From NCBI GenBank assembly GCA_000004985.1, contig GG738847.1: a DNA stretch of 64,000 nucleotides. One strand, written 5' to 3'. This document shows, piece by piece, positions 19,593-48,275 of this stretch. The notes beneath the pieces are model-generated. The model was not told the DNA's origin. It ran no database searches and saw nothing but the letters and a program-made list of their open reading frames with translations. Source of the stretch: Naegleria gruberi. Taxonomy: Eukaryota. The first letter of the stretch is position 1. Each line of letters begins with the position of its first letter. Position numbers and translations under genes: made by a program.

Positions 19593-19666
19593 TACCGACA
19601 ATGGGGCTCGAACCCACGACCCCAGGATTAGAAGTCCTGTGCTCTATCCAACTGAGCTATGACGGC
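19593..19666 (-). tRNA. tRNA-Arg, anticodon TCT.
   Basis: The reverse complement folds as a cloverleaf (GCCGTCATAGCTCAGTTGGATAGAGC...CTTCTAA loop...GGTTCGAGCCCCA). One T:T mismatch sits at acceptor pair 5:68. A downstream T-run follows in the transcribed sense. The anticodon matches the AGA-rich codon usage. Confidence 0.8.
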
Positions 19667-25819: not shown

Positions 25820-26890
25820 TTAATTGAATTTTTGAAGTGGAGTTGGAGCACTATAATAATGAGAGAACCACTTATTGAGTGCATCTTGGGCTGCTTTTTG
25901 TTCAGCAATCTTTTTAGTTTGTCCAGTTCCTTCTCCAATGACATCATTATCAACATAGACATGAACTGTGACAAATCTCTTTTCGTCTTTGGAAACTTCC
26001 TTGTATTGTACTGTTTTATGAGCATGTTCATGCATTTCACCAGTTCGTACCATCTGAGCTAATTGAGTTTTTGGATCAAAATATTGTAACATGGCTGTAA
26101 TATCAATACTCTGAGCAATGAGATTCCTCACAATGAATTTTCTAGCTTCCATCAATCCATGTTGTTCAAAGAGTGCTCCAACCATTCTATAAATTGAAAA
26201 TACTAAAAGTGAATCCAAATTATTTCTTTCAATATTCAATCCACTTCCTGTAACTTCTGAATCAATTGGAGGATTATCCAAATCACTATCATCTCTATTA
26301 TTCAAATTATTTGATGAAGCAACCAAAGTCAGTGAGGATGACAATAAACCATCCAATTTTAAACTCTTTGCCACTTGAACAATGGTTCTATTCTTTAAAA
26401 ACTCTAAAGTGGCCATCACAAGATGATCATGAGTGAGATTAGGAAAGTGAGCAAACAAGTAATCAGCTACACACAATGCAGTTACATTTCTTCCAACAAA
26501 ATTCAATCGAGAACCTTCCGATGACAAACCTCTTGTTTGAACAATGGAAGTGAGAAGAGTTTTATCATCAAGAGGGAGTGGAATTTCATTTTCAATACAC
26601 AACTTTTTAAAAGACTCTACAATAATTGCTGTTTTTTCATCGAGTATTCTTTGTTCTTGTCTCTTATTATTATTTGTCAAATTGGTATGATAACAACATG
26701 TTGTTAATCCCGATAAAGCTGGGAAATGTTCACAGTGATGATACTGATGATGATGATTTGTTGTTGAATTATTGAAATTAACTCTGGAGAATATTACATT
26801 TCTTGAGGATGTTGTGGTAGAAGATAAAATTCTTCTCATCATGAGTTTGCAAGTTGTTGAAGTTTTCATTATTTTTATTCTTTGTTTCAA
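25820..26890 (-). CDS. MRPL44: RNase III-fold plus dsRBD protein with degenerate catalytic residues, a mitochondrial ribosomal protein L44 / Mrpl3-like.
   Basis: SRLNFVGRNVTALCVADYLFAHFPN corresponds to the ERLEFLGD...YLFxxFP RNase III signature with the acidic residues lost. C-terminal dsRBD (TVHVYVDNDVIGEGTGQTKKIAEQKAAQDAL). The N-terminus looks like a presequence. Confidence 0.55.
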   Translation of the reverse strand: MKQRIKIMKTSTTCKLMMRRILSSTTTSSRNVIFSRVNFNNSTTNHHHQYHHCEHFPALSGLTTCCYHTNLTNNNKRQEQRILDEKTAIIVESFKKLCIENEIPLPLDDKTLLTSIVQTRGLSSEGSRLNFVGRNVTALCVADYLFAHFPNLTHDHLVMATLEFLKNRTIVQVAKSLKLDGLLSSSLTLVASSNNLNNRDDSDLDNPPIDSEVTGSGLNIERNNLDSLLVFSIYRMVGALFEQHGLMEARKFIVRNLIAQSIDITAMLQYFDPKTQLAQMVRTGEMHEHAHKTVQYKEVSKDEKRFVTVHVYVDNDVIGEGTGQTKKIAEQKAAQDALNKWFSHYYSAPTPLQKFN

Positions 26891-29027: not shown

Positions 29028-29184
29028 TATGAAATGGAACCACTCATTAAATGACACTAAATACTATATTGATAAGTTTGTGGGCCCAATTGCTGAATTG
29101 TTGTTAAATTTGTTCTTTGTGGTGATGGGCTATGTGGTTTATTTTACCGCCAAAATACTTTACTGAAAAAACAACTACAAAAAA

Positions 29185-32100
29185 ATGAGCTCAAACCAAT
29201 TAACGGACGAACAGCTCGAAGCACAACAAGAGCAAAAGGAAATGAAGGAGATTGAAAATCAACTTTCCAAACAACAAGTTGCAGAAAAATTATACGAGAA
29301 TATTTGTACTCTCGATCATTCGTTCGGATTTGAGAGTCTTAAAAGAAATAATATTCAGTATTTGAAGGAAAATATTGTTATAACAAGTGTTGGTAACACC
29401 ATACAATTTATTGATATTGCGGAATCAAGATATAGATGGATTAATGTACCCGGTCATGGAGGTATTGGAGCTTTAGCCCTCCATCCTTCGAAAAAGTGGG
29501 TTGCTATCGGAGAAAAGAGTAGAGAAAAACCAAATGTATATATTTATGAAATAACAATAGAGTCAGATATTGAGAGTATCTCATTAAAGCCAATTAAAAC
29601 ATTAAAAAATGGTACTTTGAGAGCTTTCTCTTCGATGGCATTCAATTCTAAGGGAAACAGATTGGCTACAGTCGGATCATCTCCCGATTATTTACTCACT
29701 ATTTGGAATTGGGAACAGGAAAAAATAGCGCTCAGATATAAGGCCTTTGGTCAGGATGTTTATTCTGTTTCATTTTCAGCAACAAGTGAAGGACAGCTTA
29801 CCACAAGTGGTACAGGGCACATCAAATTTTGGAAAATGGCAAAAACATTTACTGGATTAAAGCTGAAGGGTCAGATTGGTAAATTTGGTAAAATTGATAT
29901 ATCTGATATTTCCAGTTGTGTTGAGCTTCCTGATGGTAAGGTATTGTCTGGCTGTGAGGACGGTTACCTGCTGCTTTGGGATGAGAACCTTATCAAATGT
30001 TTGCTCACTAATATGGGTGAAAAATGTCACGAAAAAGGAATTGAAGTTGTAATTTACGATGAAAAAGAGAGTGTTTTTATTACAGGAGGTAATGATGGTT
30101 ATGTCAGATTTTGGGACTTTAACATGATCGATTCTGCAGAACCAATAGATACAAATAACATAATCTCTATCAGACCAAAAAGACAAATATTTATTGGGGA
30201 GGATGTGAGGGTTATTTCATTAATTAGAGAAAATGATATTTGGATTATTCAAGATGCTAATGGAGGATTTTGGAAATATCCATATCTTGAACTTGATGCT
30301 CAGGCCATTAAAATATTTAGTTTCCATTCAGGTGCAGTTGGAGGAATGCTTACATCTCCCACTGATCACGTTGCAATTACTGGAGGTGAGGATGGAACAT
30401 TGAGATTGTTTGATTATTTCTGGGCAAAAAAGGAAGTATACTCTACAAAATTTCAAAGTGGTGTTTCTAAAATGGTTTGGAACCCTTCTTTCCTAGATCA
30501 AACAGGAACTGTATTCACTGCAGGTTTTTTAGATGGTTCAGTAAGAGTACTCAGGAGATGTGAAGATTCATTTGCTTTGGTCAGTGTTTTCAAGCCTCAT
30601 AAGACTAAGGTAAATGATTTTGCCTATTCTAAGGAGGACCATTTATTTGTAAGTTGTGGAGATGATAGCACGGTATTCTTTTTTGATTATACAAAGCAAT
30701 TCTCTCCAATTGGTTATGCTAAATTTACACAACCAATCAATAGTTTAATGTTTTCTCCTGATAACACTGATTTAATTTTGTTTGCTCAAGATGGCTCAAT
30801 TTTGCGAATGGAAAAACCTGACTCCTCTCAGATTGATACCTTAAAAACCTTCGAATTCAAACCAATTACAAAGAAGATAAACTATTCACAATACATCAAA
30901 AAGGAGGCTCCTCCTAAGAAGGTCAAAAACGATGATGACAGCGATGACGAAGAGGAAATTAAGGAAGAAGTCAGTGAGGAGCAACCAAGTGAAATAGTTT
31001 GGGCAAAGATTTCAAAAGCTGGAAATTTAATTATCAGTTTCGAAAGAGGAGAGGGAATTGTAGAATATGACTCGAGTATTTTAACTACCCGTTCTTCAAA
31101 TGAAATGATTTATCCAAAGCGATATATTTGCGACTACAAATCTGTTTGTACCAGTTTAACATACAGCACAGATGAGAAGTACTTTATCTGTGGTTTTAGA
31201 GATGGTTTTGTTTTGTTTATACAGCGAGAAACAATGAAAGAGTTTAGAGGGGAATACTTGCATGATTGTATATTTGGAGAAATAGTGAGTGCCATGACAA
31301 GTTTTGATTCTAGCTTCTTGCTCACTGTTGGTAGGGAAGGTTGTTTCTTCAGTCAAAGAGTTCCACAGTACGAAACAAAGCAAGGAGAAAAACCAAACTT
31401 GACTTTTGTAGCAGAGGAAAAGGTTGTTGATGATTTATCACCAGGTCAAGCTGTCAGTATTGAAGAAGCAAGGGAGCAAGAAGAACAAAACAAAAAGCAA
31501 GCAGCAGCAGAAAAACGAAAAGAAGAGAAAAAGAAGAAGATTCAAATGATTAAGGCCAAGTATATGGAAATTGTAAAAGAAAACGAGAAGAGAGAATCAG
31601 ACATCAAATTATCGAGAGAAGAACTTCAAGTTGACACAAATTTGAAAGAAAGAGTTTTAGCAAGTAATATGAAAAAGCTTGATGAAACCAGACAAGAAAT
31701 GGATTGGAACTCTGCCAAGCATGATGTAGCTCTGAAAAAACTAAAAGACCATTTCATCGACTGCTTAGATGTTGAGAGAATAGACCTGAAGGCCTTCAGA
31801 AGCGGAAAATCTGTAACCTCTTTTAAAACAAGAAAATTGGACGAGGAGCTGAAAAAGGAAATCGAAAAAGTTCACAAGCTCATTAATGAAGAAATTGGAA
31901 GAAAAAGAGCATGGAAAACAATTGGTGATGATTCAATTTCTGCTGTAGAAATCAAAGAAAACAGCACGCCATCAGTTCATTCTTCAAACAATAGAAGAAG
32001 AAAAACTGTAATGAATAACTTTGAAAAGCAGGAAATGATGAAGAGAGAAAAGGAGGAAAGACAAAGACAAAGACAGACATTACTAAATAGAAAACCTTCA

Positions 32101-33969
32101 GAAACCGAAGAAGATCCAGAGGAAATTTCCGAAATCCTGAGAGCACAACAAAACATGGGAGATTATAAATTAAAATCAGCAGATGACTACATTGTTCCTG
32201 ATGGACAAAGAGTAACCACAGAGAAGAAACTTCGTCAAATTATCCTTTTGCAAGAGAGTATGCACACTCTTAGAATGGTTTTCAATGTTAGATTGTTGGG
32301 GTTGAGGGACTTGAAGGTTCGTCTCATTGAAAAGTTCAAGCATTACAATGAGAAAATCCAAGAAATCAATAACAAGATCTGTATTAATGAAAAACTCTAC
32401 GAACCAGAGCTAATGGACGAAGAGTACCCAGAAAAGAGAGAAAATATTTCAGTCTCTGAGATTGAAAATGACGATCAAGAAAGAGGGGATGATAAGTCGT
32501 ATGGTAAAAAAGGTGCAAAGACAGTACCAAAGCACAAAGAAAATCAAGACGATCCTAACACATCCAAGCTTTCAGAGCTCGAAAAGGCAGAGAAGGAAGC
32601 TGAATTCCAAAGACTTCTCTATGAAAAAAATAGATACTTGAGGAAACAAGACAAACAAATCGAGAGCTTTGATAATGCTATTGAAGATTTGAGAAGAGAA
32701 AAATTCAAACTTGATGGTGACCTTAAATCTGCAGACCTAAAGCTTTTGGTATTGTATAGAGAACTCAAGATTTTGAGAGAGTATGAGGTTAAAGACCTTA
32801 AAAAGATTCAAGAATTGCTTGTTAAAAAGCAGGAGAAGGCATCAATTCAAAATCAAATTGCTGAATGTCAAGAACAATTAAAGCAAAAGAAAAAGGAAGT
32901 TCAACAGATCAAAAAGCAAAAATACTTGATTCAAGAATTCCACACTCTTGTTCCTCAGAATTATCCAGCATATGCCGAACTTTGGAAGCTCTTCACCGGT
33001 AACGATCGAGACGATGATGATGAAAATCTTTCAGATGTTGTTTCTACTGATGGAGAAAAGAACAAAATTCCTTCTGGTTGCACCGAAGAACTCTATCATC
33101 AAATATTTGATTTGAAAGTTAGAAGAATTGAACAAGAAAAAGCTCTTAACTCAATTGACAAGGCAGCAAAAAGCATTAAAACAAAGAGAGAAGGTTTTCA
33201 AAAAATTGAAGCAAACATCATCAAGGAATTGAATAAGATTGAGGAATCTATCAGAGAAACACAAAAAGAGAAACAAAACAAGCTAAATGATTTGGAAACT
33301 ATTGTAGTGTTGAAGTTTAACCAAATTCAGTCATTGGTGCAAAATAAGATTGCTGCTGATCTTTCAGATCAAATTGTATTTACCAACAAGTCTCTACAGG
33401 CATTATTTGAAAGAATTAGAGAGCTTTCTAAAGAACGGGATCAACTTCGTACAAAATATATTGATCTTCAAAAGACACAAAGAGGCATGCTAAAGGAACA
33501 AAAGGGGTTGGAAGAAAAGTTCTCAACTGAGAAAGATAAAGTTAGAGAGGTTCAAATGCTCAAATTTGGAAAGGAAATTAATCTTGAGGAAATGGAAAAT
33601 GCCAAGATAGATCTGGAAGCTGAGGAAATTAAAGCTGAACTGTCTCTCAGAGAACAAGAATCTGCAAGAATATTGAAGGAATGGGACAATAAGATTACAG
33701 AATACAAACAAACAATGATCAAAATCAATACCGAAAATACTCAATTGCTCAACAGAATTTCCGAACTCAAAGGTCATCAAAAGAATTTGGAAGGTGAACT
33801 TAACACAGCACAAAACACAATCATCGAAAGAATGGAGAGAGCAATCACAACAACAAAGGATAATACTGAACTTTACAAGACGGTAATTAATCAACAAAAT
33901 AAGAAGATTGAAAGTGTTAAGAATGATATTGCAATGCTAACCTTCAAGGCTTCTTCACTTGGCTTTTAA
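29185..33969 (+). CDS. Large WD40-repeat plus coiled-coil protein of the CFAP43/CFAP44 family (cilia/flagella-associated).
   Basis: 1594 aa. The N-terminal 550 aa carry multiple WD40-like repeats (GxxDGxxxxWD patterns). The C-terminal about 900 aa is K/E-rich coiled coil. The architecture and size match CFAP43/44, but I cannot decide between the two. Confidence 0.5.
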   Translation: MSSNQLTDEQLEAQQEQKEMKEIENQLSKQQVAEKLYENICTLDHSFGFESLKRNNIQYLKENIVITSVGNTIQFIDIAESRYRWINVPGHGGIGALALHPSKKWVAIGEKSREKPNVYIYEITIESDIESISLKPIKTLKNGTLRAFSSMAFNSKGNRLATVGSSPDYLLTIWNWEQEKIALRYKAFGQDVYSVSFSATSEGQLTTSGTGHIKFWKMAKTFTGLKLKGQIGKFGKIDISDISSCVELPDGKVLSGCEDGYLLLWDENLIKCLLTNMGEKCHEKGIEVVIYDEKESVFITGGNDGYVRFWDFNMIDSAEPIDTNNIISIRPKRQIFIGEDVRVISLIRENDIWIIQDANGGFWKYPYLELDAQAIKIFSFHSGAVGGMLTSPTDHVAITGGEDGTLRLFDYFWAKKEVYSTKFQSGVSKMVWNPSFLDQTGTVFTAGFLDGSVRVLRRCEDSFALVSVFKPHKTKVNDFAYSKEDHLFVSCGDDSTVFFFDYTKQFSPIGYAKFTQPINSLMFSPDNTDLILFAQDGSILRMEKPDSSQIDTLKTFEFKPITKKINYSQYIKKEAPPKKVKNDDDSDDEEEIKEEVSEEQPSEIVWAKISKAGNLIISFERGEGIVEYDSSILTTRSSNEMIYPKRYICDYKSVCTSLTYSTDEKYFICGFRDGFVLFIQRETMKEFRGEYLHDCIFGEIVSAMTSFDSSFLLTVGREGCFFSQRVPQYETKQGEKPNLTFVAEEKVVDDLSPGQAVSIEEAREQEEQNKKQAAAEKRKEEKKKKIQMIKAKYMEIVKENEKRESDIKLSREELQVDTNLKERVLASNMKKLDETRQEMDWNSAKHDVALKKLKDHFIDCLDVERIDLKAFRSGKSVTSFKTRKLDEELKKEIEKVHKLINEEIGRKRAWKTIGDDSISAVEIKENSTPSVHSSNNRRRKTVMNNFEKQEMMKREKEERQRQRQTLLNRKPSETEEDPEEISEILRAQQNMGDYKLKSADDYIVPDGQRVTTEKKLRQIILLQESMHTLRMVFNVRLLGLRDLKVRLIEKFKHYNEKIQEINNKICINEKLYEPELMDEEYPEKRENISVSEIENDDQERGDDKSYGKKGAKTVPKHKENQDDPNTSKLSELEKAEKEAEFQRLLYEKNRYLRKQDKQIESFDNAIEDLRREKFKLDGDLKSADLKLLVLYRELKILREYEVKDLKKIQELLVKKQEKASIQNQIAECQEQLKQKKKEVQQIKKQKYLIQEFHTLVPQNYPAYAELWKLFTGNDRDDDDENLSDVVSTDGEKNKIPSGCTEELYHQIFDLKVRRIEQEKALNSIDKAAKSIKTKREGFQKIEANIIKELNKIEESIRETQKEKQNKLNDLETIVVLKFNQIQSLVQNKIAADLSDQIVFTNKSLQALFERIRELSKERDQLRTKYIDLQKTQRGMLKEQKGLEEKFSTEKDKVREVQMLKFGKEINLEEMENAKIDLEAEEIKAELSLREQESARILKEWDNKITEYKQTMIKINTENTQLLNRISELKGHQKNLEGELNTAQNTIIERMERAITTTKDNTELYKTVINQQNKKIESVKNDIAMLTFKASSLGF

Positions 33970-33996
33970 TATTCTTTCCAATAAATATCAGAAAAA

Positions 33997-36900
33997 ATGT
34001 CTCAACAACTCCAGCTTGAAATAAAAGGTGTTGTCGGCAATCTTCAATCATCAAAAGTAACAGATCGCAAAGTATGTTGTTCCTAGTTTTTTATGATCAA
34101 ACATTTTTAAAGAAAGGTATTGGCCAACTAAGAGACTTTGTAAATAGAAATCGGAATAATTTAACAGTACTGGACGAAAAGGAGTGGAGTGTAATTATCA
34201 AAAAAGCCTTTTTGGAATGTTTAGAAACAGAAATCAAGGCTAAAGCAAACAAATCATCAGGAACATTAAAATCAGAGTTTGCTGTTCCATGTAAGGAGAT
34301 TTTAACAACACTTATTGAGTATAGTAAAAGTGACAATCCCGAAGGTAAGTGTTTTAACTTTATAATAAATTTTGATCTGATGATGAATAGATGATAATTC
34401 CGACAATGATAAAACCTATCTACTCAATGCAAAAGTAATCAAAGATATAATTCAATTTATTTTAACAAATATTAATTTTAATGACAACAATAATAATGAT
34501 GATTCTAATAGAAGTTTTTGCTTCTCGGCTGTCAGTTGTGATATTTTGAAATCCATATTAGGCGTGCGTAAATATTCTTCCAAGATAACAAGTGGCCTTT
34601 TTGATGAATTACTTCAATCATTTGGAGATTTAATTATTGATGGAAAGCTTTCCATGGTTGATGCTAATCATTATGCATCATGTGTGGAGATGATCATATT
34701 GGAATATCCAAGAGAGTTCAGCGAATCTCAAAAGAAAGTAATGCTAGCATTATTTGAGGATTACTTTTTAGGAAAATCAAAGAATTGCGTTTATGACAAA
34801 GTTCAACTTCATTTGATAACAGCCTTAAATTATATTACAACTATACTGTCTTTTGATGATATTGATACATTTAGAAAGTTGGCAAACACTATTTGTTCTA
34901 AATTACTTGTATTATTTTCCACAACACACAACAATGAATATTTAAAAGTAAGTTTTAATTCTTTCCTTATTTATCATAATTATTGTAATGTAAAGATCGA
35001 GATTTTGAAATTTTTTAGAATAATTATAAATTTAAGAACAGAAGAAACAGAGCTTATTCTTGAAAATGATAATCTTATTGAATTCTACAATATTTTAAAG
35101 AATAGTTTGAATCAGACAAGGTACTTTTCGTATAATATTAAAAATATAAATACAAAGGAAGCAGAAATGAAGAAGAAAAATAGAGATATCTATTTTGAAG
35201 TCTGTGCAGACTGTATGAACCAGGTACTGATCTATGAGTCCACAAAAAAACCCTCCACTGACGAGGATTCCCAACACAAGTCACCAAGTAAGAGAATGAA
35301 GGTTCAGACTGTAAAAAGTGAAATAGTTCAAACTCTTTTAAATACCCCTCCAGAAAAAGAAGAAACCTCTAATTGGATCAAAGTGGTCTATATAATCATG
35401 AGCAAATACTATGGAAGGTTTTCAGACATTATGGAGTCTGAATTTGTTGAAAGGTTATTCACGATTGTAAAGGAGAGGTAAGTATTATATAACTTGGCTA
35501 CTGACTTTTTGAAAGAAAAATATTTGACGATGTTCATACAGAAATTCTGAAAATATTCAGAATTTGCCTTCTCAAAGAGGAAAAGATATCTTGGGGAAAT
35601 AGCTTATTCAATTTTCTAATTCAACTAGTGAAAAGGGAATCTAGTTATGTTATCAGGGAATCTATTTCCTTGTTAGCATTAATTTTAGAAAAAGTTGACG
35701 ACAATTTGGCATATGAGCCAGAATTCAATTTGCAAGTGTTAGAATCAAAATATTTCTCGAATAGTCAACACGTCTCCATAGAGTCATTACATTTGCTTGT
35801 AGTTTTATTCAAACAACATCACCTGAAAAGGAAATTTAAGGTTTTTGAGGATATGGGGTTACTAATGAAATGGGTTTGTGGAAGTTTAGATATTGGATAT
35901 GGTATTACTTTAGATATGGAAATAGTTTCAAAATTTTTTGTTACTATTTTGTCTACTGATGGAAATATTCAACCATTTAAAGATTCCATATTTAAAAAGT
36001 ATCTGGATTACAAAAGTTCTCTTGAACAATATAATTTACTAGATATATTGAAGGGTAGAGATGAATTGGATTCATCTTCTTCGGAAAACGATAGACCTTT
36101 CGATAGTTCCAATCTGGAAAAGTTTTCCATAACTATGAATGGTTTGGCAAAAAATTTGGCAAGAGATTCTAAATCCGAGTCATCAGAAAACTTTAAACGT
36201 TTGACAAAGATTCTTGAGATGGTTCATTTACTCACAACAATGACCATTGAAAACAGGTCGCTTTTAAGTAATAGAATATTCTCAAAAGTCTACGTTGATA
36301 TTCACAATTTAGTAATTGAATTTTTAAAGGATAGCTTCAAGTCAAAAGAGTTCGAGACAATTCAGTGGGATGCTATACTGGATAAATTGTCAGCAACACT
36401 TGTGAATGAAAAGAATTCAAGACATGATGGTGTTATACTCACATGGTCCTTGCTTGTACAGGAATTAGTATTGCCATTAGTTAAAAAAGCTGTTGAAGGC
36501 TTGAATATCTCAAGAAACTCATCAAATGATGATGGCTTTATGATTGATGATACTCCTTCATCAAAGAATGAAGAGAAACCTATTTGCAGAAGTCTTATTA
36601 ACAATGGGCTTAATTTTACTGGCTATATGCTCACATACAACCCAAATATACAAACGAAGGCAGTTGAAGAGTTGAATACTATTTTCGAATCTTCAACAGA
36701 GATGTTTGTCAAGTTTGGTATTTGTAACATATTGGCCAAAACTGGTAACTCTGCAATGATCACTAATTGCCTTGAAATTATTCCTAGATCTATTGGAGAT
36801 AACAAGAGTTGGAGAAATGTAATGGAAATATTATCCACAATGGCAAACTTTATAGAGGACACACATGTGGCTCCTTTTTCAGAGTTATTAAGCTCACTTT

Positions 36901-39900
36901 TGGACGTATACGAAAAGGATTTCTTCGATAGAGATTCAACTATTTCTCTAGCAAGAGCAGTTGTTTCAGCCTCTAAAATTTCTGAGAAATTTAAAGAGTT
37001 GGAGACTTTCAAAAAAACTTGCAAAGAATTCTTATTTAGTGATAAATTTTTCCCTAGATTAATAATGAGTGAAAGACTGTACGATTGGGCTTCTGTTTCA
37101 AGTATAGATTCTTTGGTGGATGAGTTAATTGAAATTCTCGAGCGTCCAACAGATAAGCTCAAAATAAGAACTTGCCTGCTTTCACTTAGCTTTACAACTG
37201 ATCCGACCCTTTCCAAGAAGATTATTTTACGATTACTTTCATGCTATGCCAACGAGGAATTTAAAGAAAAGGAGCTTGCTAAGGTGACTATGTCTAAAAT
37301 AGCTGGTGGCGATATATCAGGATTTTTGAGAACCAACCTTAGAGAAATAATACTGGGTTGGGTTCAAAAAAAGACAGACTTTTCCTCATTTCCTTATGAA
37401 TTGTTTGGAGAAAAGTCTTTGGGGCCATTTTTGATTAATAATGCTTTTGACATACTTCCTATTCTGTTTACTCAAACTCAACTCAAAACTTTCGAAGGAA
37501 TCTGTTCCTGTATTAACATGGATCTCAAGTCTATTTTGAGAAAATACTTTTGTTATGTATTCCCATATTGTCTGTCCAGATGTTTTAGTGATAGGTCATT
37601 GATCAAATCTATTATTGAGGAAAAAATAAGGGGAACCTTAGGAGCAGAAGTAGACACATTAATACGAAAGAATATCACAGACATTTTACTAGAAACATTA
37701 TTTTTGTTGTCGGAAAAACCAGATAATGTACTTACATTTGGAAAAGATATGATTTTCAAAACATTGTCTGATCTTTCTAAGAATGCAGAAAAAAAAGACG
37801 TAGAAAAACTTTTAAACCAAGATTTACACAAAACTCTAAATATGATTACCAATATTTTCGAATTACTTTCTAAAAAGAAGAATGAGAGCAGTAGAAGTTT
37901 TTATATTTTCAAGACATTTGTTCTTGAAGTAATGGGATCCAACTTGCAAGTACCTATACTTTTGAGAAGTGTTATTACAGTAGCACTGTTTTGTACTTCG
38001 TATTGTGAGCTGTTCGAGCCAAGTTGTTCTTTAATATTCGAAATTTGCTCGAGAATTTTGGATGCAAATAATTCCGTAGCGTTGACAGAATTACAATTAA
38101 CTTATCCTAAAATAAGAAACCGATTGATTGAAATAGTTTCCAAAGGAACTGGATCACCAACACCAATGAAAACATTAATGCTTTTGGTTTCTTCTCCATC
38201 AATGGTACCAGCTGTTGCAAAGACTGAACCGTTTCCTAGTCAAGAAATTTTCAAGGAACTGAATGTATGTCAACAGAAAATTCAAGGAACAGAAAATTTC
38301 TTCACTCAAATTGGAAACATTTTGGCAAGCGAAAATTTATCTACATTCAGCTTTACCTATGTTTCCAGGTTAATCAAAACCCATAGACTCTCACTCATGA
38401 ACGTTCTAGCCCAACAAGACAAGAAAGCCTCAATTTTGGAGGAGTATTTCAACAAATTAATTTCCAAACTAATTGGAGCTTGCTCAACAGAGAGTACAGA
38501 CGAATGGAAAGAGCTAGCAACAGTGGCTTTAGGAAATCTTGGTCTTGTACAAAATATTGAGACTTCAAAGTTAATCGACAAATCATTTATTGATGAGATA
38601 GACAATGATCCAAATGTTACAAACAAATCTTCATCATGGCTCTCTGAAATAATCAAACAGTCAAAAGCTAGAATACTCCTTACTCTGAACGGATATATTT
38701 GTGAAAATAACGTTGAAGTAGTCAAACTGGCATTGAAAACCCTACACCACATTCTTATTTCTTCTAAAAGTAGTATGGAAAAAATTCCAAATGACAAGAA
38801 GCATTACTTTGACCCTTTTGTAAATGCTGATCCAAACTATGTATATATTCCACACATAGCAACTGGACCAATAGAAACAGATGTTACTCTTGTTGCTGAT
38901 AATTCCAAAGAGATTTTTGACACCAATGACAAGTCTCATGAGCAGTGGTTATCCCAAGTCATTGAGCTTGTTCTAACCAAAACTGCAGATCCTGTACTTG
39001 GTCTGTGCAGAGATATATGTAAAAAGAAAGTCAAATTTGCAGAGATGATTTTCATCTTATCTTTGTTAGATTTTGCGACTGGAGCTCAATCTAACAAACT
39101 TAACAAAGAGTTCTCTCCTTTGATAGAATCAGTTCTGGTCAATGAAAATACCAAATCTGAAACTATCAAACTTATAGTAATGGCTCTAGATTTATTACAC
39201 AGACACTATAGATTCATGGTAAATCAGAAGCAAATCAAATCTAAAACAACAGTATCCAACTGCTTTTTTAATATTCCTTATTCAACTATTGCAAAGGCAG
39301 CAGCAAGGGCAGGAATTACATTTTCTTCTTTGATGTTTTCAGAATTATCATTTGAAAAAGATAATCTATTGTCATTCATGGATCAGTTGCCTATTGAATT
39401 CGAAGAATCGGCCAATGATAGTCAAAAATTATTGCTTTCAATTTACAAATCTATAGATGATCCTGATTGTATTTATGGAGCTACCAAAAGTTATGGAGTG
39501 CAATCAAAAATTTTGTTGGGTGAGAAGGAAGGTGATTGGACAAACACCTTAGGTCTTTATGATACTTCCGTATTGGAAAAATCTACCTCTGTGATTGGTG
39601 TTTTAGATTCATTGAAAAATATGGGACTTGATAGAGTATCATCATTAATTTTAAAGAGCATTCAATCAGATGCATTGGATAACCCTCAAGTCAGAGAACA
39701 ATTTTTCGAAAATCGTTGGAAAACATTAACTATTGATAATTTGGAAAGATATTCTTCACATTCAAGTAATATAACTGGATTCAATGAAACAGTTTTCAAT
39801 TCTCTTTATGCTTTGGTAAAAGGTGATTCTGCACTCTTCAAAGAAACATTATCAAACCATAGAAAATATATTTCAAACATTATCAGTGTAGGAAATGCTC

Positions 39901-42473
39901 AATCAAATTTGGCCAAATTACAAGTCCTTTCAGAATTAGAAATAGCATGGTCCCTGAAGTGGACAGAAATTGGAAATGTTGCACTCAAGGAAAATGATAT
40001 TATTGATAACAATTTGGGTTTGTTCATGGGAACTAATGGAATTAAGAATGATTCTTTCACTGAAGTTGAAACCTTGGTAAACTTTAGAGCTTCTCTTTTA
40101 CGTGCCTTGAAGAAAAATGAACTGGCCATCAAGCATGAAAGTGAATTTATTTCAATTGCAAGAAAGGAAGGCCAATTTACATTGGCCACTAATTTAGCAA
40201 ATAGATTATCAGTACAAATGCAAAGTGGAAGTACACCTCCATCAATTTTAGAAGAAGCCAAGATTTTATGGAGTTCAGGCGACACTTCTGGGGCTATTCA
40301 CATTCTCAGATTTTTAATTCAACAATTGGAAAAGAGAAAACAACATGATTCTCCACTCTACTTCAAGGCATGCTATTTGTTGGGTAAATGGTTAGGAGAT
40401 AGCAAAACTGACTCTTATGAAAATATTATACGATTTTTACAATTTTCTAAAGAGAAGGCTTCAAGCAAGGCAAAAGCCTGCTTCCAAATGGGAAAGTATA
40501 TTGACTCTCTCTATCAAAATATTGTCAGAAAGCAAAATAGTGAAGACAGCAAATCATATAGAGAATTATTGGAGAAAAACAAAGAACTCTACCAACAATA
40601 TGCCCAAAAGAGAAAGGAATTAAATGACAAGGACGTAACTTCGGATTTTAGGAGCAAGATGAACCACTTGCAAAAGATTACAGATTTGGATCAAAAAGAA
40701 CAGGTTTTAATTCAAAGTAGACAAGAGGAATTTAGAACTCTTGTTCTTGAAAATTATTTGCTGGCCTCTTCCACTAATGATAATTATGATTTTGTGACAA
40801 TACCAAGAATTTTGAATATTTGGTTTTCAAATTCCACAAATGAGAAAGTCAACCAATCTGTTTATCAAATGACTGTTAAAGGACCAGTTCCCTCCCATAA
40901 GTTTATCCCTCTCTTTTATCAAATAGCTTCCAGAATGGGTTATTTTGCTGAAGAGTGTCTTTTCAATAATGTTGTCATGCATCTATTATTCAAAATAGCA
41001 AAGGAACACCCATATCATACATTACCTCTCATTCTTCAAATTAGAAATGCTGACCAATCCTCCAAGACTACCTCAGCCAAAGCATCATACAAGCCAGATC
41101 CAAATAAGATAAAGGCTGCCAATACTCTAATTGACAAGTTGAAGAAAGAAAACAAGCAATTAATTGAAAGTTATGCCACTCTTATGGATGCCTATATTCA
41201 GCTTGCCTTCCTCCAACTTAGTGAAGAACAAAAGAGAGAGCAATCAACCCCTAAGAAACTAAGTTCTCAGCTCTTAATAACCAATATCAAGAGACCTGTA
41301 ATTCCTATTCTTACTGCTGATGTTCCAATTTGTGCACATGATGCATATAATCTCAAAGACATACCATTTATTGAGAACTTTTCCCAAAACTTTAGTCTTG
41401 CTGGAGGTATTAACTTACCAAAGATTATTTCATGTGTAGCTTCCAATGGCCAAGTTTATAGGCAATTAGTGAAAGGTAATGATGATATGAGACAAGATCA
41501 CGTTATTGAACAACTCTTTGCGATTGCCAATAGTTTACTCAAAAAGGATAAGGAAACAAGAAGAAGAAAATTGTTGATAAGAACTTACAAAGTAATTCCA
41601 ACCTCACCAACAAGCGGTATTTTAGGATTTGTTGAAAATACTCAACCTATGGCAACACTTTTAATTGGAAACAATGAGCAAGATTATCCTCAAAGTTTGC
41701 ACGGAAAATACAGACCTCAAGATAAGACAAATAGTGAAGTGAGAAGAACAATGTTTGGTCTGGAGAAGAAAGCAGACGCTGCCACAAGAATCAACAACTT
41801 TGTAGAGATTTGCAATAACTTTAAACCAGCTTTCCATCACTTTTTCCTTTCCCAATTTCCAAATCCTTCTGATTGGTTCGAAAAGAGACAAGCCTACACA
41901 AAATCCGTTGCATCTATTAGTATGCTCGGTTATGTCATTGGTTTGGGAGATAGACACTTGAATAATATTCTTATCGATCAGTCTACAGGAGAGGCTGTTC
42001 ATATTGATTTGGGTATTTGCTTTGAGCAAGGAAAATATTTACCAATTCCTGAGCTTGTTCCTTTCAGATTGACTAGAGATGTTATTGATGGATTTGGAGT
42101 TTCAGGTATTGAGGGTACTTTTAAGAATTGTTGTTATGCTACCATGACAGTTCTCAGAAATAATGTTGAAGCTCTTTCATTAGTGATTGAAGTATTCTTG
42201 CACGATCCTTTGTATAGATGGGCTCTTTCTCCATTGGAAGGTTATGCAGTTCAGAAGTCTAAAAAAACCTCCTATGTTGTCGAATCATCCTCCTCAACCA
42301 CCAAAAACAATAGAGATGCTGAGAGAGCTCTTATAAGATTGAAAGAAAAATTACTTGGTCAAGAGGATGGAGAACTTTTAGGTGTAAAAGGTCAAGTTAA
42401 CAAACTCATAAGTGAAGCAACAGCAATTGACAAGCTTGGTGTCATGTTTTCTGGTTGGTCACCTTTCTTGTAA
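33997..42473 (+). CDS. ATM: ATM/Tel1 PI3K-like protein kinase (TAN motif, FAT, PI3K catalytic and FATC domains). Four exons: 33997..34071, 34113..34344, 34391..35477, 35516..42473.
   Basis: Catalytic loop and DFG region GLGDRHLNNILIDQSTGEAVHIDLGICFEQGKYLPIPELVPFRLTRD is ATM-type (FEQGK). The FATC ends ...GWSPFL. N-terminal TAN-like motif present. Introns are 41, 46 and 38 nt; phases close to about 2783 aa. The ATG lies only 27 nt after the upstream gene's stop codon. Confidence 0.85.
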
Positions 42474-42503: not shown

Positions 42504-43082
42504 TTAAGGTTTTTTAAATAATCCTTTCAACTTGTCATATCTTTCCTTTCCCATAGAACTTTCACAAAATTTACAATCCTTCATCAAATCGTCCATTGAA
42601 GCTGGTTGAAAATCAATACCATCATCTTTCTCGTTGGATGGTGACAGCCATTTCAAATCATCCTCATTTGCATTTGGCTCATCAATAATCATTGTTGTGG
42701 AAAAATCATTTGCATCATCATCCTCCTCCACAAGCCACCTCTTCCAAGCACTTTGGCAATCAGGTACAATTGGTTTTCCGATTTTTTCATTTACTTCATT
42801 GTGACGTTCACACAACCAGATAGAGAGAGCTTCTCTACTTTGTGATTGTACTGGATATTTCTGAATACTCTCAGCAAAATCCTTGGCACACCATCTACAA
42901 GGATAAAACTCTGCAATTCTATAGAATAATTGTTTAATATGTGATTGTTGTTGTTGTGTTGGTTTCTTTGGATATTGTGCTGCCACCGTGTGCATAAAAG
43001 CCCACGTAGAAGCTCCCAAATTATCTTGTAATTTACGATGAGCAGCATCGTTTGATTGTTGTTCCGATGATGAATTACTCAT
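42504..43082 (-). CDS. ERV1: FAD-linked sulfhydryl oxidase of the Erv1/ALR (GFER) family.
   Basis: ERV/ALR core with redox CxxC (WAFMHTVAAQYP...FYPCRWCAKDFAESI...LSIWLCERHNEVNEK). 192 aa. Its stop lies 30 bp from the ATM stop, in convergent orientation. Confidence 0.85.
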   Translation of the reverse strand: MSNSSSEQQSNDAAHRKLQDNLGASTWAFMHTVAAQYPKKPTQQQQSHIKQLFYRIAEFYPCRWCAKDFAESIQKYPVQSQSREALSIWLCERHNEVNEKIGKPIVPDCQSAWKRWLVEEDDDANDFSTTMIIDEPNANEDDLKWLSPSNEKDDGIDFQPASMDDLMKDCKFCESSMGKERYDKLKGLFKKP

Positions 43083-44910: not shown

Positions 44911-46458
44911 ATGCTCTCTCAACTTGAAACCCTTCCAAACGAAATTATTCTCCACATTCTTCACTACATTGATGACAATGAATGCTTCCATTCAACATGT
45001 TTCACTAAAAAGTATTGGCTACTAACTATTTGGCCATACAGAAAGGAGAAACTGGCCATCAATTCTTATTCCGACCTTGACAGATATTTGCAAAATGTTA
45101 GTAATAATACCAATAACAAGGTATCATCAGCAAAGAATTCAACTATCGGATCAGTTGTAGGAGCCATCAATGCATCATCAAGAGCAACCCACATTGAAGA
45201 AAAGAAAATTTCTACTAAAATTCTATATGATTATTTCGATAGATTTACTCACTTGAAGGAAATTTCTCTTGTAAATTGTGGATTAAACGATTCAAGTCTT
45301 GAAAAACTTTGTTCCATCAATAAGAGAGGATTAATATCATTGAACATTTCTAAGAACAAGAATTTAACGTGGGCCAATACACAAAAGTGTATCATGCTTT
45401 GTGAGAATATCAAGAGTTTGGATATTTCATACAATTTTCAAGCTAGCACACCAAATCAAAATACACAAAATACTTGGATAGAAAGTTTGACATTACCAAT
45501 GTCACTAGAACGATTGAACATTTCTGGATTCCTATCGGAAATTCCTGATTTTGAATCACTTTTTAAACTAATCAAGAAATTTTCAAAGGAAAATCAAGAA
45601 ACCGAGCATCCAATAATCAAAGTATTCACAGCAAATCACTTGACCGAATTTTCACTCCTCAAACCAGAATATTTGAAAACTTTGCGAGAATTATCTAAAA
45701 AGACAATGATAGAAATGTATAACCATTGCTTTATTTTCCTCAAGTCATTGACATTTGTGGAGATTTATACATCACTGGGATTTTATCCTGCCACTGAATT
45801 GATTAACGAATGTATCATTAAGGGTCACACTCGTTCATTGGAATTATTGGCCTCGATTGACTTTCCATTTAATGAAATTTCATTGGGCGTACTGGAGGAA
45901 GCCATCCTTGCTGGACATTCATCTATTATTTCTAAACTCAGAGTTTTGGGATTTACTCGTTTCGACGATATTAGTGATGACCTCTTGGATAAGTTAGTTA
46001 CAAAGGGAGATGCAGCTGCCATTACAGAACTTCGTTCATGCAATGTACCTAGAAGAAAGTGGGATCTCATCACTTTATCAGCAGTTGAAACAGCTGTTAG
46101 AAATGGTAATAAGGATGTACTCGAACACATTAGAATGCTCAACCTGGGAGATTTACTGAAACAAGTTGCTATTGAACATGTGGAATATGCATTGGAACGT
46201 GGTCACTCTGGTATTCTCAAACAATTAACCAGTTGCAATTATCAATACCTTAATGATATTAATGCACAAATTCTGGCAAACATTGTAGCCAAATCTGTTA
46301 CTTTTGAAATTGTCCTAAGAAATGCAGGATACAAAAATCTGACAGAAATCAAGTCACTCATCAAACAACAAACCAACACCAAACCAGAGAAGAAAGCAAA
46401 GAAGGAATCCAAGAAGGAAAAGAAGAAGACAACCACAACAGCAACAAGCTCCAAATAA
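44911..46458 (+). CDS. F-box protein with LRR-like and ankyrin-like repeats and a lysine-rich C-terminus.
   Basis: N-terminal F-box consensus LPNEIILHILHYID. Later ANK-like units (AVRNGNKDVLEHI; ALERGHSGILKQL). Confidence 0.45.
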   Translation: MLSQLETLPNEIILHILHYIDDNECFHSTCFTKKYWLLTIWPYRKEKLAINSYSDLDRYLQNVSNNTNNKVSSAKNSTIGSVVGAINASSRATHIEEKKISTKILYDYFDRFTHLKEISLVNCGLNDSSLEKLCSINKRGLISLNISKNKNLTWANTQKCIMLCENIKSLDISYNFQASTPNQNTQNTWIESLTLPMSLERLNISGFLSEIPDFESLFKLIKKFSKENQETEHPIIKVFTANHLTEFSLLKPEYLKTLRELSKKTMIEMYNHCFIFLKSLTFVEIYTSLGFYPATELINECIIKGHTRSLELLASIDFPFNEISLGVLEEAILAGHSSIISKLRVLGFTRFDDISDDLLDKLVTKGDAAAITELRSCNVPRRKWDLITLSAVETAVRNGNKDVLEHIRMLNLGDLLKQVAIEHVEYALERGHSGILKQLTSCNYQYLNDINAQILANIVAKSVTFEIVLRNAGYKNLTEIKSLIKQQTNTKPEKKAKKESKKEKKKTTTTATSSK

Positions 46459-46462
46459 AAAA

Positions 46463-47695
46463 ATGGAATCACTGATTTGCCTTCCACCTTTTGAATCTTT
46501 CATCGGAAAAACAATTTCATCTCTGCCAACTCCATGTCTGGTGATTGATCAAGTTGTTTATTATGAAAATTTAAAGAATTTGAAAGAGTATGTTGATGGA
46601 AAAGTAGCAATACGACCACACTTTAAAGCACACAAGGTAAGTTTGATGTTTAATTACAATATTAAATTATATTGTTAGACTCCAGCAATAGCTTCCGATC
46701 AAATTTTAATTGGAGGAGGATGTGGAGTTTGCTGTCAGAAAGTGAGTGAAGCAGTAGAGGCCATCTCCACAGTGGATGATGTTTTAATTTCGAATCAAGT
46801 TGTGAGTGTGGAGAAATTAAAGTTGATCATTAGGATGAATAATTTGCAAAACAAGACAGTTTCACTTTGCGTTGATAATTGTGGGGTGATTGAATTGTTG
46901 GATAAATTGATGGATGGTGAATCAAAGAAATTAAATCTTGTTGTGGAATATAATGTGGGACAGAATAGGTGTGGAGTTGAGAGTCAGGATCAAGTATTGG
47001 ACCTTGTCAAAATTATTAATGAGAGTAGACATTTGAATTTTAAAGGCATTCAATGCTATAATGGCTCTAATCAACACATCAAGTCATATGAAGAAAGAAA
47101 GTTGGCAACTCAAAAAGTTGTGGAAAAGACAAGGAGTTTGGTTGACTTTTTGGAAGAGAAGGGAATTAAAGTTGAGTATGTAACTGGTGGAGGTACTGGC
47201 ACTTTTGAATTTGAAATGAATTCTGGAGTTTTCACAGAAATTCAACCAGGTTCATGGCTATTTGGTGATGCTGATTATGGATCTATCATGACCAAAAACA
47301 ACAAACCAGTCTTGGAAGATGATTCACACTTTTACTCACAGTCATTGTACATTCTCTCCACTGTTGTGAGCAAGACAGAAGGTAAAAGGGTAGTATTGGA
47401 TGCAGGACTCAAAGCCTCAACTATTGATAGTGGCAATCCAATTCTGAAAGAACCTCAAATGAGAGTACTCAAATATAATTTTGGTGGTGATGAACATGGC
47501 ATTCTTTCTGTGAATGAGAATGAAAAATCCAAGGACTTGATTGATCAAATTAATGTTGGAGATCAAATTCAATTAATCCCAGGACATGTGGATCCAACTT
47601 TTAATATGTACGATTCAATAATATTCTATAACAGTAGAGAAAATAATTTAGTGACACGAGTTGAAAAAATCAAAGCACGTGGACCAGGTATTTAA
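46463..47695 (+). CDS. D-serine dehydratase-like protein (fold-type III PLP enzyme, alanine-racemase N-terminal domain family, DSD1 type). Two exons: 46463..46636 and 46679..47695.
   Basis: Intron of 42 nt (GTAAGT...TGTTAG), phase 0. The motif RPHFKAHK with the PLP-lysine context is characteristic of DSD1/D-threo-3-hydroxyaspartate dehydratase-type enzymes. A C-terminal beta domain is present. The stop codon overlaps the RidA stop on the opposite strand. Confidence 0.65.
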
Positions 47696-48202: not shown

Positions 48203-48275
48203 CTCCCCCTGGTGGGCTCGAACCACCGACCTGCAGATTAACAGTCTGACGCTCTACCGACTGAGCTAAGGGGGA
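48203..48275 (-). tRNA. tRNA-Asn, anticodon GTT.
   Basis: The reverse complement gives TCCCCCT acceptor, TAGCTCAGTCGGTAGAGC D-arm, anticodon loop CTGTTAA, T-arm GGTGGTTCGAGCCCACC, and 3' acceptor AGGGGGA that pairs perfectly. T-runs follow downstream in the transcribed sense. Confidence 0.85.

Follow-up and report, generated by a model that had tools for sequence, protein, structure and literature searches.

Where does one transcript end and the next begin when two genes on the same strand lie only a few bases apart? This question was raised by the junction of CFAP44 and ATM in the window analysed here, a stretch of 64,000 nucleotides of Naegleria gruberi DNA (contig GG738847.1). Direct reading of the sequence placed the TAA stop codon of CFAP44 at 33967-33969, the ATM start codon at 33997-33999 and, in the 27-nt spacer between them, an AATAAA hexamer at 33980-33985. 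An earlier sequence-only reading had given the same stop, spacer, hexamer and start, exact to the base, together with an upstream ORF of 1594 codons ending in TAA, which ORF reading confirmed. It had concluded that any ATM promoter must lie inside the upstream coding region or that the two genes are co-transcribed. Our analysis favored, with a probability of about 0.7, two independently transcribed and slightly overlapping units, not an operon, with the spacer probably being the CFAP44 3′ UTR superimposed on the ATM 5′ leader or initiator.

The label "CFAP43/44-like" given earlier to the upstream gene named the right family, and protein matches narrowed it to CFAP44, not CFAP43. The protein contains WD40 β-propellers followed by a Cfap43/44-type coiled coil, is 69% identical to N. 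fowleri FDP41_013171 across 99% of its length and 58% identical to a Willaertia protein, and has named CFAP44 or FAP44 matches in Acrasis, animals, and chytrids. Its C-terminus, NDIAMLTFKASSLGF before the stop, agrees with that of N. fowleri, NDIAMLTFKASSLGY. The ATM/Tel1 identity of the downstream gene was borne out by the TAN, FAT, PI3K-like kinase, and FATC domains, all of which were detected; aligned along its full length (100%), the protein shows 45% identity to the ATM of N. lovaniensis and N. fowleri, and the next-best matches were animal ATM and fungal Tel1. The best matches of the window came from N. fowleri, N. lovaniensis, and Willaertia, as for a Naegleria-like heterolobosean, and exact look-ups with four of its proteins had no hit. 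Met1 lines up with Met1 of seven ATM/Tel1 orthologues from Naegleria, animals, and fungi, and the Pfam TAN match spans residues 10-168 (3.3e-9), the TAN motif beginning at about residue 10. Judged by these comparisons, ATG 33997 is the authentic start codon, as had been proposed. ATM would comprise 2767 aa with intron 3 spliced and 2783 aa with it retained. The features are listed in the table.

Table. Features at and around the CFAP44-ATM junction (positions in the window)
Feature	Position	Strand	Remarks and basis
Candidate E2F-like motif, TTTGGCGG (CCGCCAAA on the + strand)	29147..29154	-	about 31-38 nt 5′ of CFAP44 ATG
CFAP44 orthologue, single exon, 1594 aa	29185..33969	+	ORF, domains, protein matches
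Spacer, 27 nt, tattctttccAATAAAtatcagaaaaa	33970..33996	+	read directly from sequence
13-nt block abutting ATM ATG, AATATCAGAAAAA	33984..33996	+	conserved in three Naegleria species
ATM exon 1, 25 codons	33997..34071	+	starts at ATG 33997-33999
Second sense AATAAA, ATM codons 8-10 (Glu-Ile-Lys)	34020..34025	+	one of only two in 49.5 kb of CDS
ATM intron 1, 41 nt, GTATGT...AAAG	34072..34112	+	splicing restores frame and yields TAN motif
ATM exon 2	34113..34344	+	gene model
ATM intron 2, 46 nt, GTAAGT...ATAG	34345..34390	+	gene model
ATM exon 3	34391..34947	+	gene model
Probable ATM intron 3, 48 nt, GTAAGT...AAAG	34948..34995	+	in frame, without stop; retention possible
ATM exon 4	34996..35477	+	gene model
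ATM intron 4, 38 nt, GTAAGT...AAAG	35478..35515	+	gene model
ATM exon 5, encoding FAT, PI3K-like kinase, FATC	35516..42473	+	domains, protein matches
Erv1/Alr gene, convergent with ATM, 30 nt stop to stop	42504..43082	-	neighbour kept in N. fowleri and N. lovaniensis
AATAAA (46454-59) embedding stop TAA (46456-58) of F-box/LRR-like gene	46454..46465	+	tighter second junction

The hexamer at 33980-33985 is very probably the poly(A) signal of CFAP44. According to a published N. gruberi study, AAUAAA is the top poly(A) signal of this species and lies 15-20 nt ahead of cleavage, the median 3′ UTR is 39 nt, and genuine sites are told apart from those in coding regions mostly by the identity of the hexamer (PMC11529991). 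In the 49.5 kb of CDS in the window, AATAAA was seen twice on the sense strand versus 45.7 ± 6.2 expected from codon shuffles, and 48 times on the antisense strand, a bias of strand and location that is far from chance. This near-purge from coding sequence suggests that elongating polymerase uses any AAUAAA that it meets. The 4.8-kb CFAP44 CDS contained no sense-strand AATAAA, and the first one begins 10 nt after its stop. The hexamer occurred within -5 to +45 of the stop codon in 12 of 30 window genes, and the CFAP44 orthologues carry it as well, at +27 in N. fowleri and overlapping the stop in Willaertia. The polyadenylation-like signal noticed in the spacer is thus plausibly a genuine one, being the published signal of the species and purged from CDS. 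Given the distance of 15-20 nt from AAUAAA to cleavage and the median 3′ UTR of 39 nt, CFAP44 cleavage is predicted at about 33995-34005, level with the ATM ATG or slightly beyond it. The TAA inside the hexamer (33982-84) shares the reading frame of CFAP44 and that of ATM, and constitutes an in-frame stop 12 nt 5′ of the ATM ATG.

The spacer AATAAA could instead be merely part of the A/T-rich ATM leader, with CFAP44 cleaved further 3′ and overlapping ATM more deeply, which we consider unlikely. With 46% A and 30% T in the gene leaders of the window, a stretch of 27 nt would carry one or more AATAAA with a chance of about 0.12, and the mere presence of the hexamer in the spacer is not significant by itself. 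AATAAA was found within 40 nt 5′ of the ATG in 6 of 22 window genes, as composition predicts, and some of these have no upstream tandem neighbour, including the gene with AATAAA 6 nt before ATG 26868. Of the published auxiliary elements, no UGUA was present upstream of the 33980 hexamer and no U-rich stretch downstream. One candidate for the CFAP44 site would then be the second hexamer, 34020-25 in ATM exon 1, which is followed by the GU-rich stretch ggtgttgtcgg and is matched by ATTAAA at the homologous Ile-Lys of the ATM orthologues. Nevertheless, it is mainly the hexamer itself that sets genuine sites apart in N. gruberi (PMC11529991), the one at 33980 is the first met by the CFAP44 transcript, and a 3′ UTR of about 30 nt agrees with the published median. 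Moreover, the ATM leaders of N. lovaniensis and N. fowleri, which have no tandem gene 5′, read ATTTAA and GAAAAT at this place. Both sense AATAAA in the CDS of the window sit no more than 45 nt from their ATG, and the one at 34020-25 may be a back-up CFAP44 signal or may be tolerated as promoter-proximal.

As regards the start of ATM, the argument from space made by the sequence-only reading was sound: 27 nt are too short for a 3′ UTR, a full promoter, and a 5′ UTR together, and typical tandem spacers here are about 90-160 nt. However, beyond a promoter in coding sequence and co-transcription, the only choices that it offered, the spacer itself may contain a minimal initiator or leader, as the conservation of its last 13 nt among ATM orthologues suggests. 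The block AATATCAGAAAAA was the sole invariant cluster in the three-species alignment of ATM upstream regions, sequence further 5′ being unalignable, and it persists in the Naegleria orthologues despite different upstream neighbours. The leader matched those of two ATM orthologues at 13/17 and 11/17 positions, and the null comparisons (n=53) averaged 7.5 with an sd of 1.5 and reached 10 at most. By this measure the conservation is modest, and part of the block is the A-run generic to Naegleria genes, 12 of 22 window genes having four or more A residues just before their ATG. The block would represent the ATM 5′ UTR, initiator, or translation context. Other genes have their candidate promoter motifs just 30-50 nt 5′ of the ATG, which implies short 5′ UTRs and compact promoters. 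One of them, TTTSSCGS, had 8 matches versus 3.1 expected, most of them in this range, and the E2F-like match 5′ of CFAP44, which recurs in the same or similar form at a similar distance in N. fowleri (CCGCCAAA) and Willaertia (GCGGGAA), is a candidate CFAP44 promoter element. A literature search found no report on where Naegleria transcripts start or on how long their 5′ UTRs are.

We propose that CFAP44 and ATM came to abut through a lineage-specific rearrangement and subsequent genome compaction. The spacer AAUAAA would direct CFAP44 cleavage and polyadenylation, giving a 3′ UTR of about 26-36 nt and an mRNA end at the ATM start codon or a few bases beyond. ATM transcripts would arise from a compact promoter with AATATCAGAAAAA as initiator or leader, any further upstream elements lying within a few tens of bases of the end of the CFAP44 CDS, and the two mRNAs would have a few to a few tens of nucleotides in common. 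To escape the hexamer, ATM transcripts could start 3′ of it, or poly(A) signals very near a transcription start may go unused. From these features we infer where CFAP44 is cleaved, where ATM transcription starts, and that the two transcripts are independent.

Co-transcription is not a serious alternative given that CFAP44 and ATM are not neighbours in N. fowleri, N. lovaniensis, or Willaertia and that the upstream ORF has 1594 codons. In N. fowleri a convergent Alg6/8 gene comes after CFAP44, in Willaertia a different gene does, and the ATM of N. lovaniensis and N. fowleri has a divergent DnaJ/RRM gene 5′, 165-214 nt away. A bicistronic or operon-like transcript, with ATM expressed by re-initiation, internal entry, or trans-splicing at tatcAG, is very unlikely, although the genes share a strand, a conventional promoter does not fit in the 27-nt spacer, and polycistronic mRNAs are reported from green algae and Cryptosporidium. 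The AG that follows a short pyrimidine stretch 5 nt before the ATG is conserved in orthologues, but there it is kept with the leader behind a divergent promoter region, and the base ahead of the A-run differs among other genes, which speaks against a general acceptor. In eukaryotic translation a long first ORF excludes leaky scanning and leaves re-initiation very inefficient, and to our knowledge no spliced-leader trans-splicing has been reported in Heterolobosea. Furthermore, if the AAUAAA between the cistrons functions, such a transcript would be cut there, and an axonemal protein and a DNA-damage kinase have unrelated functions.

The same conserved block, tatcAG or tattAG, could be a 3′ splice site instead of an initiator, the ATM transcript then starting well inside CFAP44 and losing a 5′-UTR intron. 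The AATATYAG block does end in AG in three of three species, and weak GTAAT donors lie about 100-110 nt 5′ in the window (33883) and in N. lovaniensis; but the confident introns of the window all begin with GTAAGT or GTATGT, chance alone would yield one GTAAT in about every 500 nt at this composition, N. fowleri has no comparable donor, and a donor in the CFAP44 CDS would risk CFAP44 mis-splicing, which makes such an intron highly improbable. An assembly mis-join is scarcely credible: synteny with N. fowleri and N. lovaniensis does break at the junction, but the sequence there shows no repeat, N-run, or composition jump, both frames are intact to conserved termini, the conserved ATM leader runs seamlessly on from the CFAP44 3′ flank, and other neighbours differ too, as expected for divergent Naegleria species.

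The junction is not a special locus; equally tight or tighter ones recur in the window. Among 18 head-to-tail stop-to-ATG distances, which cover the window and also three related loci (4, 27, 33, 51, 66, 93, 113, 121, 124, 127, 155, 156, 157, 211, 225, 244, 382, and 429 nt), that of CFAP44-ATM is the second shortest; its excess over chance is partial, the gap being short for a tandem pair yet not unique. In the shortest, only 4 nt (AAAA, 46459-46462) separate the stop of the F-box/LRR-like gene from ATG 46463 of a D-serine-dehydratase-like gene, whose Ala_racemase_N match begins at profile position 7 with exon 1 included and at 48 without it. Convergent stop-to-stop gaps in the window were 10, 13, 15, 26, and 30 nt, plus one overlap of 4 nt, and the coding share was at least 77%. 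Tiny gaps with overlapping end and start signals are thus routine in this compact genome, and the CFAP44-ATM junction is ordinary.

Several known systems resemble this arrangement in part. In spliced-leader operons (C. elegans, including the SL1-type without intercistronic spacer, Oikopleura, and kinetoplastids), the genes likewise share a strand and the upstream AAUAAA stands beside an AG just before the downstream ATG; unlike them, CFAP44-ATM shows no spliced-leader evidence, no conserved adjacency, and no general acceptor pattern in other genes. Promoter-proximal poly(A) sites are occluded in the HIV-1 5′ LTR and CaMV, and a hexamer used by transcripts from far upstream and ignored by those starting beside it would be comparable, a parallel suggested by two CDS hexamers. 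Giardia has minimal promoters with an A/T-rich initiator directly 5′ of the ATG and 5′ UTRs of a few nucleotides; similarly, an A-rich run abuts the ATG in most window genes and candidate motifs lie within about 50 nt. Such features would let a promoter fit in, or just 5′ of, the 27-nt spacer.

Overlapping transcription units in compacted genomes, namely those of microsporidia (such as Antonospora and Encephalitozoon) and cryptomonad nucleomorphs, were reportedly described by Williams et al. in PNAS in 2005. They share with CFAP44-ATM the tiny spacers, the 3′ processing in or beside the neighbour, promoters pushed into upstream genes, and an origin as a by-product of compaction, not of co-regulation. 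In contrast, Naegleria is free-living, with a genome of about 30-40 Mb, normal splicing and poly(A) machinery, and a canonical AAUAAA purged from coding strands, and the overlap here is one that we infer. A transcriptome paper on E. cuniculi also belongs here (PMC3629993). For N. gruberi and Giardia, PMC11529991 describes 3′ UTRs that are ultrashort and dual-use signals in which stop and poly(A) signal coincide; as far as consulted, it does not address the cleavage position relative to the start of the next gene. As in the genes described there, the AAUAAA of CFAP44 stands a few to a few tens of nucleotides from the stop, with a predicted 3′ UTR of about 30 nt. Unlike the dual-use signals given there, the CFAP44 hexamer begins 10 nt past the stop without overlapping it, whereas the pair at 46454-59 in the window is a true dual-use AATAAA/TAA of the kind described.

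A 27-nt spacer, tattctttccAATAAAtatcagaaaaa, separates the stop codon of the CFAP44 gene from the start codon of the downstream ATM/Tel1 gene. The anatomy described by the sequence-only reading, with the stop codon, the 27-nt spacer, AATAAA and ATG in this order, was matched exactly by the sequence. The hexamer started 10 nt past the CFAP44 TAA. The ATG of ATM shared the reading frame of the CFAP44 ORF, with two in-frame TAA codons (at 33967 and 33982) in between, so a read-through fusion protein of CFAP44 and ATM was excluded and is not at issue. The window as a whole was about 34% G+C and very gene-dense, and its GT-AG introns were short (38-48 nt).

Coordinates of the features discussed (positions in the window unless a related locus is named)
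Feature	Position	Strand	Remarks
CFAP44 ORF	29185..33969	+	single exon, 1594 codons; TAA at 33967-33969
Spacer	33970-33996	+	27 nt
AATAAA in spacer	33980-33985	+	candidate poly(A) signal of CFAP44
ATM start codon	33997-33999	+
ATM exons	33997-34071, 34113-34344, 34391-34947, 34996-35477, 35516-42473	+	gene model; product 2767 aa
ATM introns		+	41, 46, 48, 38 nt; gene model
ATM intron 3	34948-34995	+	probable; 48 nt, GTAAGT...AAAG
AATAAA in ATM exon 1	34020-34025	+	Ile-Lys codons
AATAAA in NDK-like gene	7805-7810		sense; Ile-Lys codons
AATAAA before RNase III-like gene	26874-26879	-	6 nt upstream of ATG 26868
F-box/LRR-like gene, TAA	46456-46458		embedded in AATAAA 46454-46459
D-serine-dehydratase-like gene, exon 1	46463-46636		ATG at 46463
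D-serine-dehydratase-like gene, intron	46637-46678
Convergent pairs (gap)	409/425 (15 nt), 5613/5624 (10), 11080/11094 (13), 42473/42504 (30), 51923/51950 (26)
Convergent pair (overlap)	47692-47695		4 nt
TTTSSCGS sites	1798, 1991, 7716, 29147, 43368, 49865, 56587; 48418		48418 inside CDS
TTTSSCGS sites, related loci	L001 ~9965; L003 ~9963
tRNA-Arg(TCT)	19593-19666	-
tRNA-Asn(GTT)	48203-48275	-
Mago nashi / 227-aa ORF	L001 20890/20910	- / +	N. fowleri
Retroelement-like ORF	L005 20665-24276		N. fowleri, ~3.8 kb past ATM

Judged from its homologue matches and Pfam architecture, the upstream gene is the CFAP44 orthologue of a Naegleria-like heterolobosean. Its product had 69% identity over the full length with a protein of Naegleria fowleri and 58% with one of Willaertia magna, and the more distant matches, with E values from 0 to 1e-196, carried the names CFAP44 or FAP44 ("flagella-associated protein 44" in Acrasis, and many animals and chytrids). 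Members of this class were taken to contain N-terminal WD40 β-propellers followed by a long Cfap43/44-type coiled coil, in about 1600-2000 aa, and to have best full-length homologues named CFAP44/FAP44. Both the architecture and the naming were found here, with EML-type propellers and WD40 repeats at aa 62-555 and a CC_Cfap43 domain at aa 942-1097 (30.5 bits, cutoff 27).

The downstream gene showed all three features of ATM/Tel1, namely a TAN domain (Pfam PF11640, aa 10-168, 3.3e-9, 37.5 bits, cutoff 27.1), the order FAT (3.4e-13), PI3_PI4_kinase (1.1e-64) and FATC (1e-10, at the extreme C-terminus), and a closer relation to ATM/Tel1 than to ATR, TOR, SMG1 or DNA-PKcs. The best matches were the ATM-type proteins of N. 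lovaniensis and N. fowleri (45% identity, 100% coverage, ~2050 bits), followed by animal ATM (~550 bits) and fungal Tel1/ATM-type proteins (294-394 bits), while ATR scored at most 229 bits and TOR, SMG1 and DNA-PKcs lower still. These homologues were obtained with the C-terminal exon; the first 700 aa as a query gave no match at E<=1e-5, the N-terminus having diverged too far for the word index. The probable third intron keeps the frame and contains no stop codon, and full-length products would result from its splicing (2767 aa) and its retention (2783 aa). The predicted protein shared the alignment position of its Met1 with both Naegleria orthologues, with ATM of fish and of Aplysia, and with three Tel1 proteins from fungi. 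At the expected distance past Met1 lay the TAN motif LQSSKVTDRKKGI, which aligned with its counterparts in the proteins of all these groups. The next in-frame Met lies about 200 residues on, where initiation would lose the TAN domain, and an in-frame TAA 12 nt 5' of the ATG closes the frame. By these alignments and this frame, ATG 33997 is the real start of ATM, and a true start farther downstream, one of the findings that were to overturn the sequence-only reading, was excluded.

The function of the AATAAA in the spacer was evaluated against published data and against the distribution of this hexamer in the window. [quoted passage not shown] Roughly 1238 AAUAAA hexamers are reported from coding regions of N. 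gruberi. In the window, 12 of 30 stop codons had AATAAA within -5 to +45 nt, and the hexamer was depleted over the whole window (99 matches vs 139 +/- 12 expected). In 49.5 kb of confident CDS only 2 sense-strand copies were present, vs 45.7 +/- 6.2 expected from codon shuffling (500 shuffles, minimum 29), and 48 on the antisense strand. The 4.8-kb CFAP44 CDS contained none on the sense strand, so the copy at 33980 is the first that a CFAP44 transcript reaches. In the CFAP44 orthologues, AATAAA was found at +27 from the stop codon in N. fowleri and overlapping the stop codon in Willaertia. An exact hexamer near the stop codon and the pattern of enrichment and avoidance were thereby observed; of the auxiliary elements, TGTA was absent from 33930-33980 and a U-rich stretch from 33986-34020, leaving neither UGUA nor U-rich elements around the hexamer. 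The chance of AATAAA in a 27-nt A/T-rich leader was about 12%, and 6 of 22 gene leaders contained it. One of these hexamers precedes an RNase III-like gene that has a divergent gene upstream, and this indicated that leader hexamers occur even where no upstream gene needs one; it had been listed as a CDS copy (26879) and was dropped from that list when the true ATG of the gene was placed at 26868.

On balance, the spacer hexamer is probably the poly(A) signal of CFAP44. From its position and the published spacing of 15-20 nt, cleavage would be predicted at about 33995-34005, which is at or just past the start codon of ATM, and the 3' UTR would measure some 26-36 nt. The main competing explanation is that the spacer hexamer is incidental and that CFAP44 is cleaved farther downstream, for example after the AATAAA in ATM exon 1. 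This second copy is flanked by a GU-rich stretch. The avoidance of sense hexamers in coding regions and their placement near the CFAP44 stop codons of the relatives argue for the spacer copy.

Part of the spacer also appeared to belong to ATM. Upstream of ATM, N. lovaniensis and N. fowleri have a divergent DnaJ/RRM gene, 165 and 214 nt away, and downstream of it a convergent Erv1/Alr gene that is common to all three species. The upstream regions of the three genes were unalignable, even between the two close relatives, save the bases abutting the ATG, which read AATATCAGAAAAA-ATG in the window and AATATTAGAAAAAA-ATG in both relatives. When compared with 53 unrelated Naegleria/Willaertia gene leaders (mean 7.5 matches, sd 1.5, maximum 10), the leaders of the ATM orthologues ranked first and second, with 13/17 and 11/17 matches. 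Among 58 Naegleria/Willaertia genes, taken from the window and from the related loci L001, L003, L004 and L005, 36 had a run of at least four A's immediately before the ATG; these runs, of 4-9 A's, are genus-wide and Kozak-like or initiator-like. Since the A-run is generic, the specific part of the block is AATATYAG. We read the 3' half of the spacer as the putative leader or initiator of ATM itself. The hexamer overlaps the conserved block by two bases, and the homologous positions in the orthologues, neither of which has a tandem gene upstream of ATM, are ATTTAA and GAAAAT. An additional likeness between the last CFAP44 codons and the region upstream of N. lovaniensis ATM (aaggctt...acttg) was rejected, being due to conserved Lys-Ala codons of CFAP44 and missing among the invariant columns of the MAFFT alignment.

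The two genes are not neighbours in the related species. Downstream of CFAP44, N. fowleri has a convergent Alg6/8 gene at a distance of 45 nt, Willaertia has another neighbour again, and the upstream neighbour of ATM differs in the two Naegleria species, so that the CFAP44-ATM adjacency is lacking in N. fowleri, N. lovaniensis and Willaertia. Because of these differing neighbours, the junction is, on the gene orders compared, a lineage-specific rearrangement breakpoint. This weighs against bicistronic or trans-spliced expression of the two genes, which the common strand and the 27-nt intercistronic spacer would otherwise allow. The functions of CFAP44 and ATM are unrelated, the first ORF is 1594 codons long, and no general acceptor pattern was found, the base preceding the A-run varying among the 58 gene leaders; an operon is thus disfavoured. 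An AG at -7/-6 of the ATM ATG, in the window and in the orthologues, might be the end of a 5'-UTR intron of ATM, an explanation we also disfavour since there is no good donor, the confident introns all beginning with GTAAGT or GTATGT. Nothing in the sequence pointed to a mis-assembly of the junction.

The close spacing of CFAP44 and ATM agrees with the compactness of the genome. The coding fraction of the window was at least 77%, tandem spacers were as small as 4 nt, and gaps of 19-45 nt were found in the N. fowleri annotation. The head-to-tail distances from stop to ATG in the window and the annotated related loci were 4, 27, 33, 51, 66, 93, 113, 121, 124, 127, 155, 156, 157, 211, 225, 244, 382 and 429 nt. 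The 27-nt gap lies in the lower tail of these distances and forms no outlier class of its own. The shortest distance was observed at a second tight tandem junction, where the stop codon of an F-box/LRR-like gene forms part of an AATAAA and is followed by AAAA and the ATG of a D-serine-dehydratase-like gene. The first exon of the latter was validated, since with it the Ala_racemase_N match began at profile position 7 instead of 48. Convergent stop-to-stop gaps were 10, 13, 15, 26 and 30 nt, and one pair overlapped by 4 nt; as 3' UTRs measure about 39 nt, antisense overlap of transcripts must be common and routine at convergent pairs. Other features of these loci were also recorded. The start codons of Mago nashi and a 227-aa ORF in N. 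fowleri are 19 nt apart, both leaders being poly-A/T; the locus that carries N. fowleri ATM contains a non-LTR retroelement-like ORF (endonuclease, reverse transcriptase, RNase H), and its ORFs at 18697 and 24310 have in common the repeated leader tttttttgaaagcgac...aaaaaaaATG. A search of the entire window with Rfam found two tRNAs and nothing else, and the tRNA-Asn gene is located within a divergent promoter region of about 200 nt between the starts of an L-PSP gene (48153) and a B-box gene (48351).

The promoters of these genes also appeared to be short. The E2F-like motif TTTSSCGS had 8 matches in the window vs 3.1 expected (8 were reached in 1 of 100 shuffles), nearly all in short promoter regions and typically 30-50 nt before an ATG, and the site upstream of CFAP44 was kept in the window, N. 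fowleri and Willaertia. The position of these candidate motifs suggests that promoters are compact and 5' UTRs short; the literature search gave nothing usable on Naegleria transcription starts, 5' UTR lengths, promoters or polycistronic transcripts. A typical tandem spacer of about 90-160 nt would house a 3' UTR of about 40 nt, a promoter and a 5' UTR. At the CFAP44-ATM junction, the conserved 13 nt before the ATG would act as the initiator or leader of ATM, and upstream elements, if any, would lie in the final tens of bases of the CFAP44 CDS. ATM would be transcribed independently, its transcript overlapping the 3' end of CFAP44. We infer the overlap from the hexamer position and the published spacing, and all transcript ends given here are likewise inferred.

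The two sense hexamers in coding regions, in the NDK-like gene and in ATM, are both within 45 nt of the ATG. About 2.7% of the CDS lies in the first 45 nt of genes, and two of two would fall there by chance with a probability of roughly 7e-4 (n=2), a thin hint from these two cases that tolerance of poly(A) signals is confined to the close vicinity of the transcription start. It is conceivable, though we consider it improbable, that AAUAAA is read in two ways at this junction, being used by polymerases after the 4.8-kb transit of CFAP44 and ignored, together with the hexamer at 34020, by fresh ATM polymerases in a promoter-proximal "blind zone", and that strong CFAP44 transcription during amoeba-to-flagellate differentiation silences the embedded ATM promoter by transcriptional interference in the non-dividing flagellate. 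If true, the blind zone would explain how ATM transcripts pass the hexamers that terminate CFAP44 transcripts.

For the annotation of Naegleria genomes, overlapping UTRs of neighbouring genes should be allowed, promoters may lie in coding sequences, and RNA-seq assemblers tend to fuse such pairs. With a stop codon, a candidate poly(A) signal, a conserved leader and a start codon in about 60 nt, the locus is a compact test site, which could serve to define a minimal Naegleria promoter and to test the neglect of poly(A) signals near the transcription start; transfection of Naegleria is now emerging (PMC12845041). The sequence-only reading had reasoned that the ATM promoter lies within the CFAP44 coding region or that the two genes are co-transcribed. 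This was largely right, except that the locus is an everyday result of genome compaction in Naegleria; it is no new kind of element and probably no operon. Taken alone it matters little, as another case of gene-boundary compression in the genome of a free-living protist.
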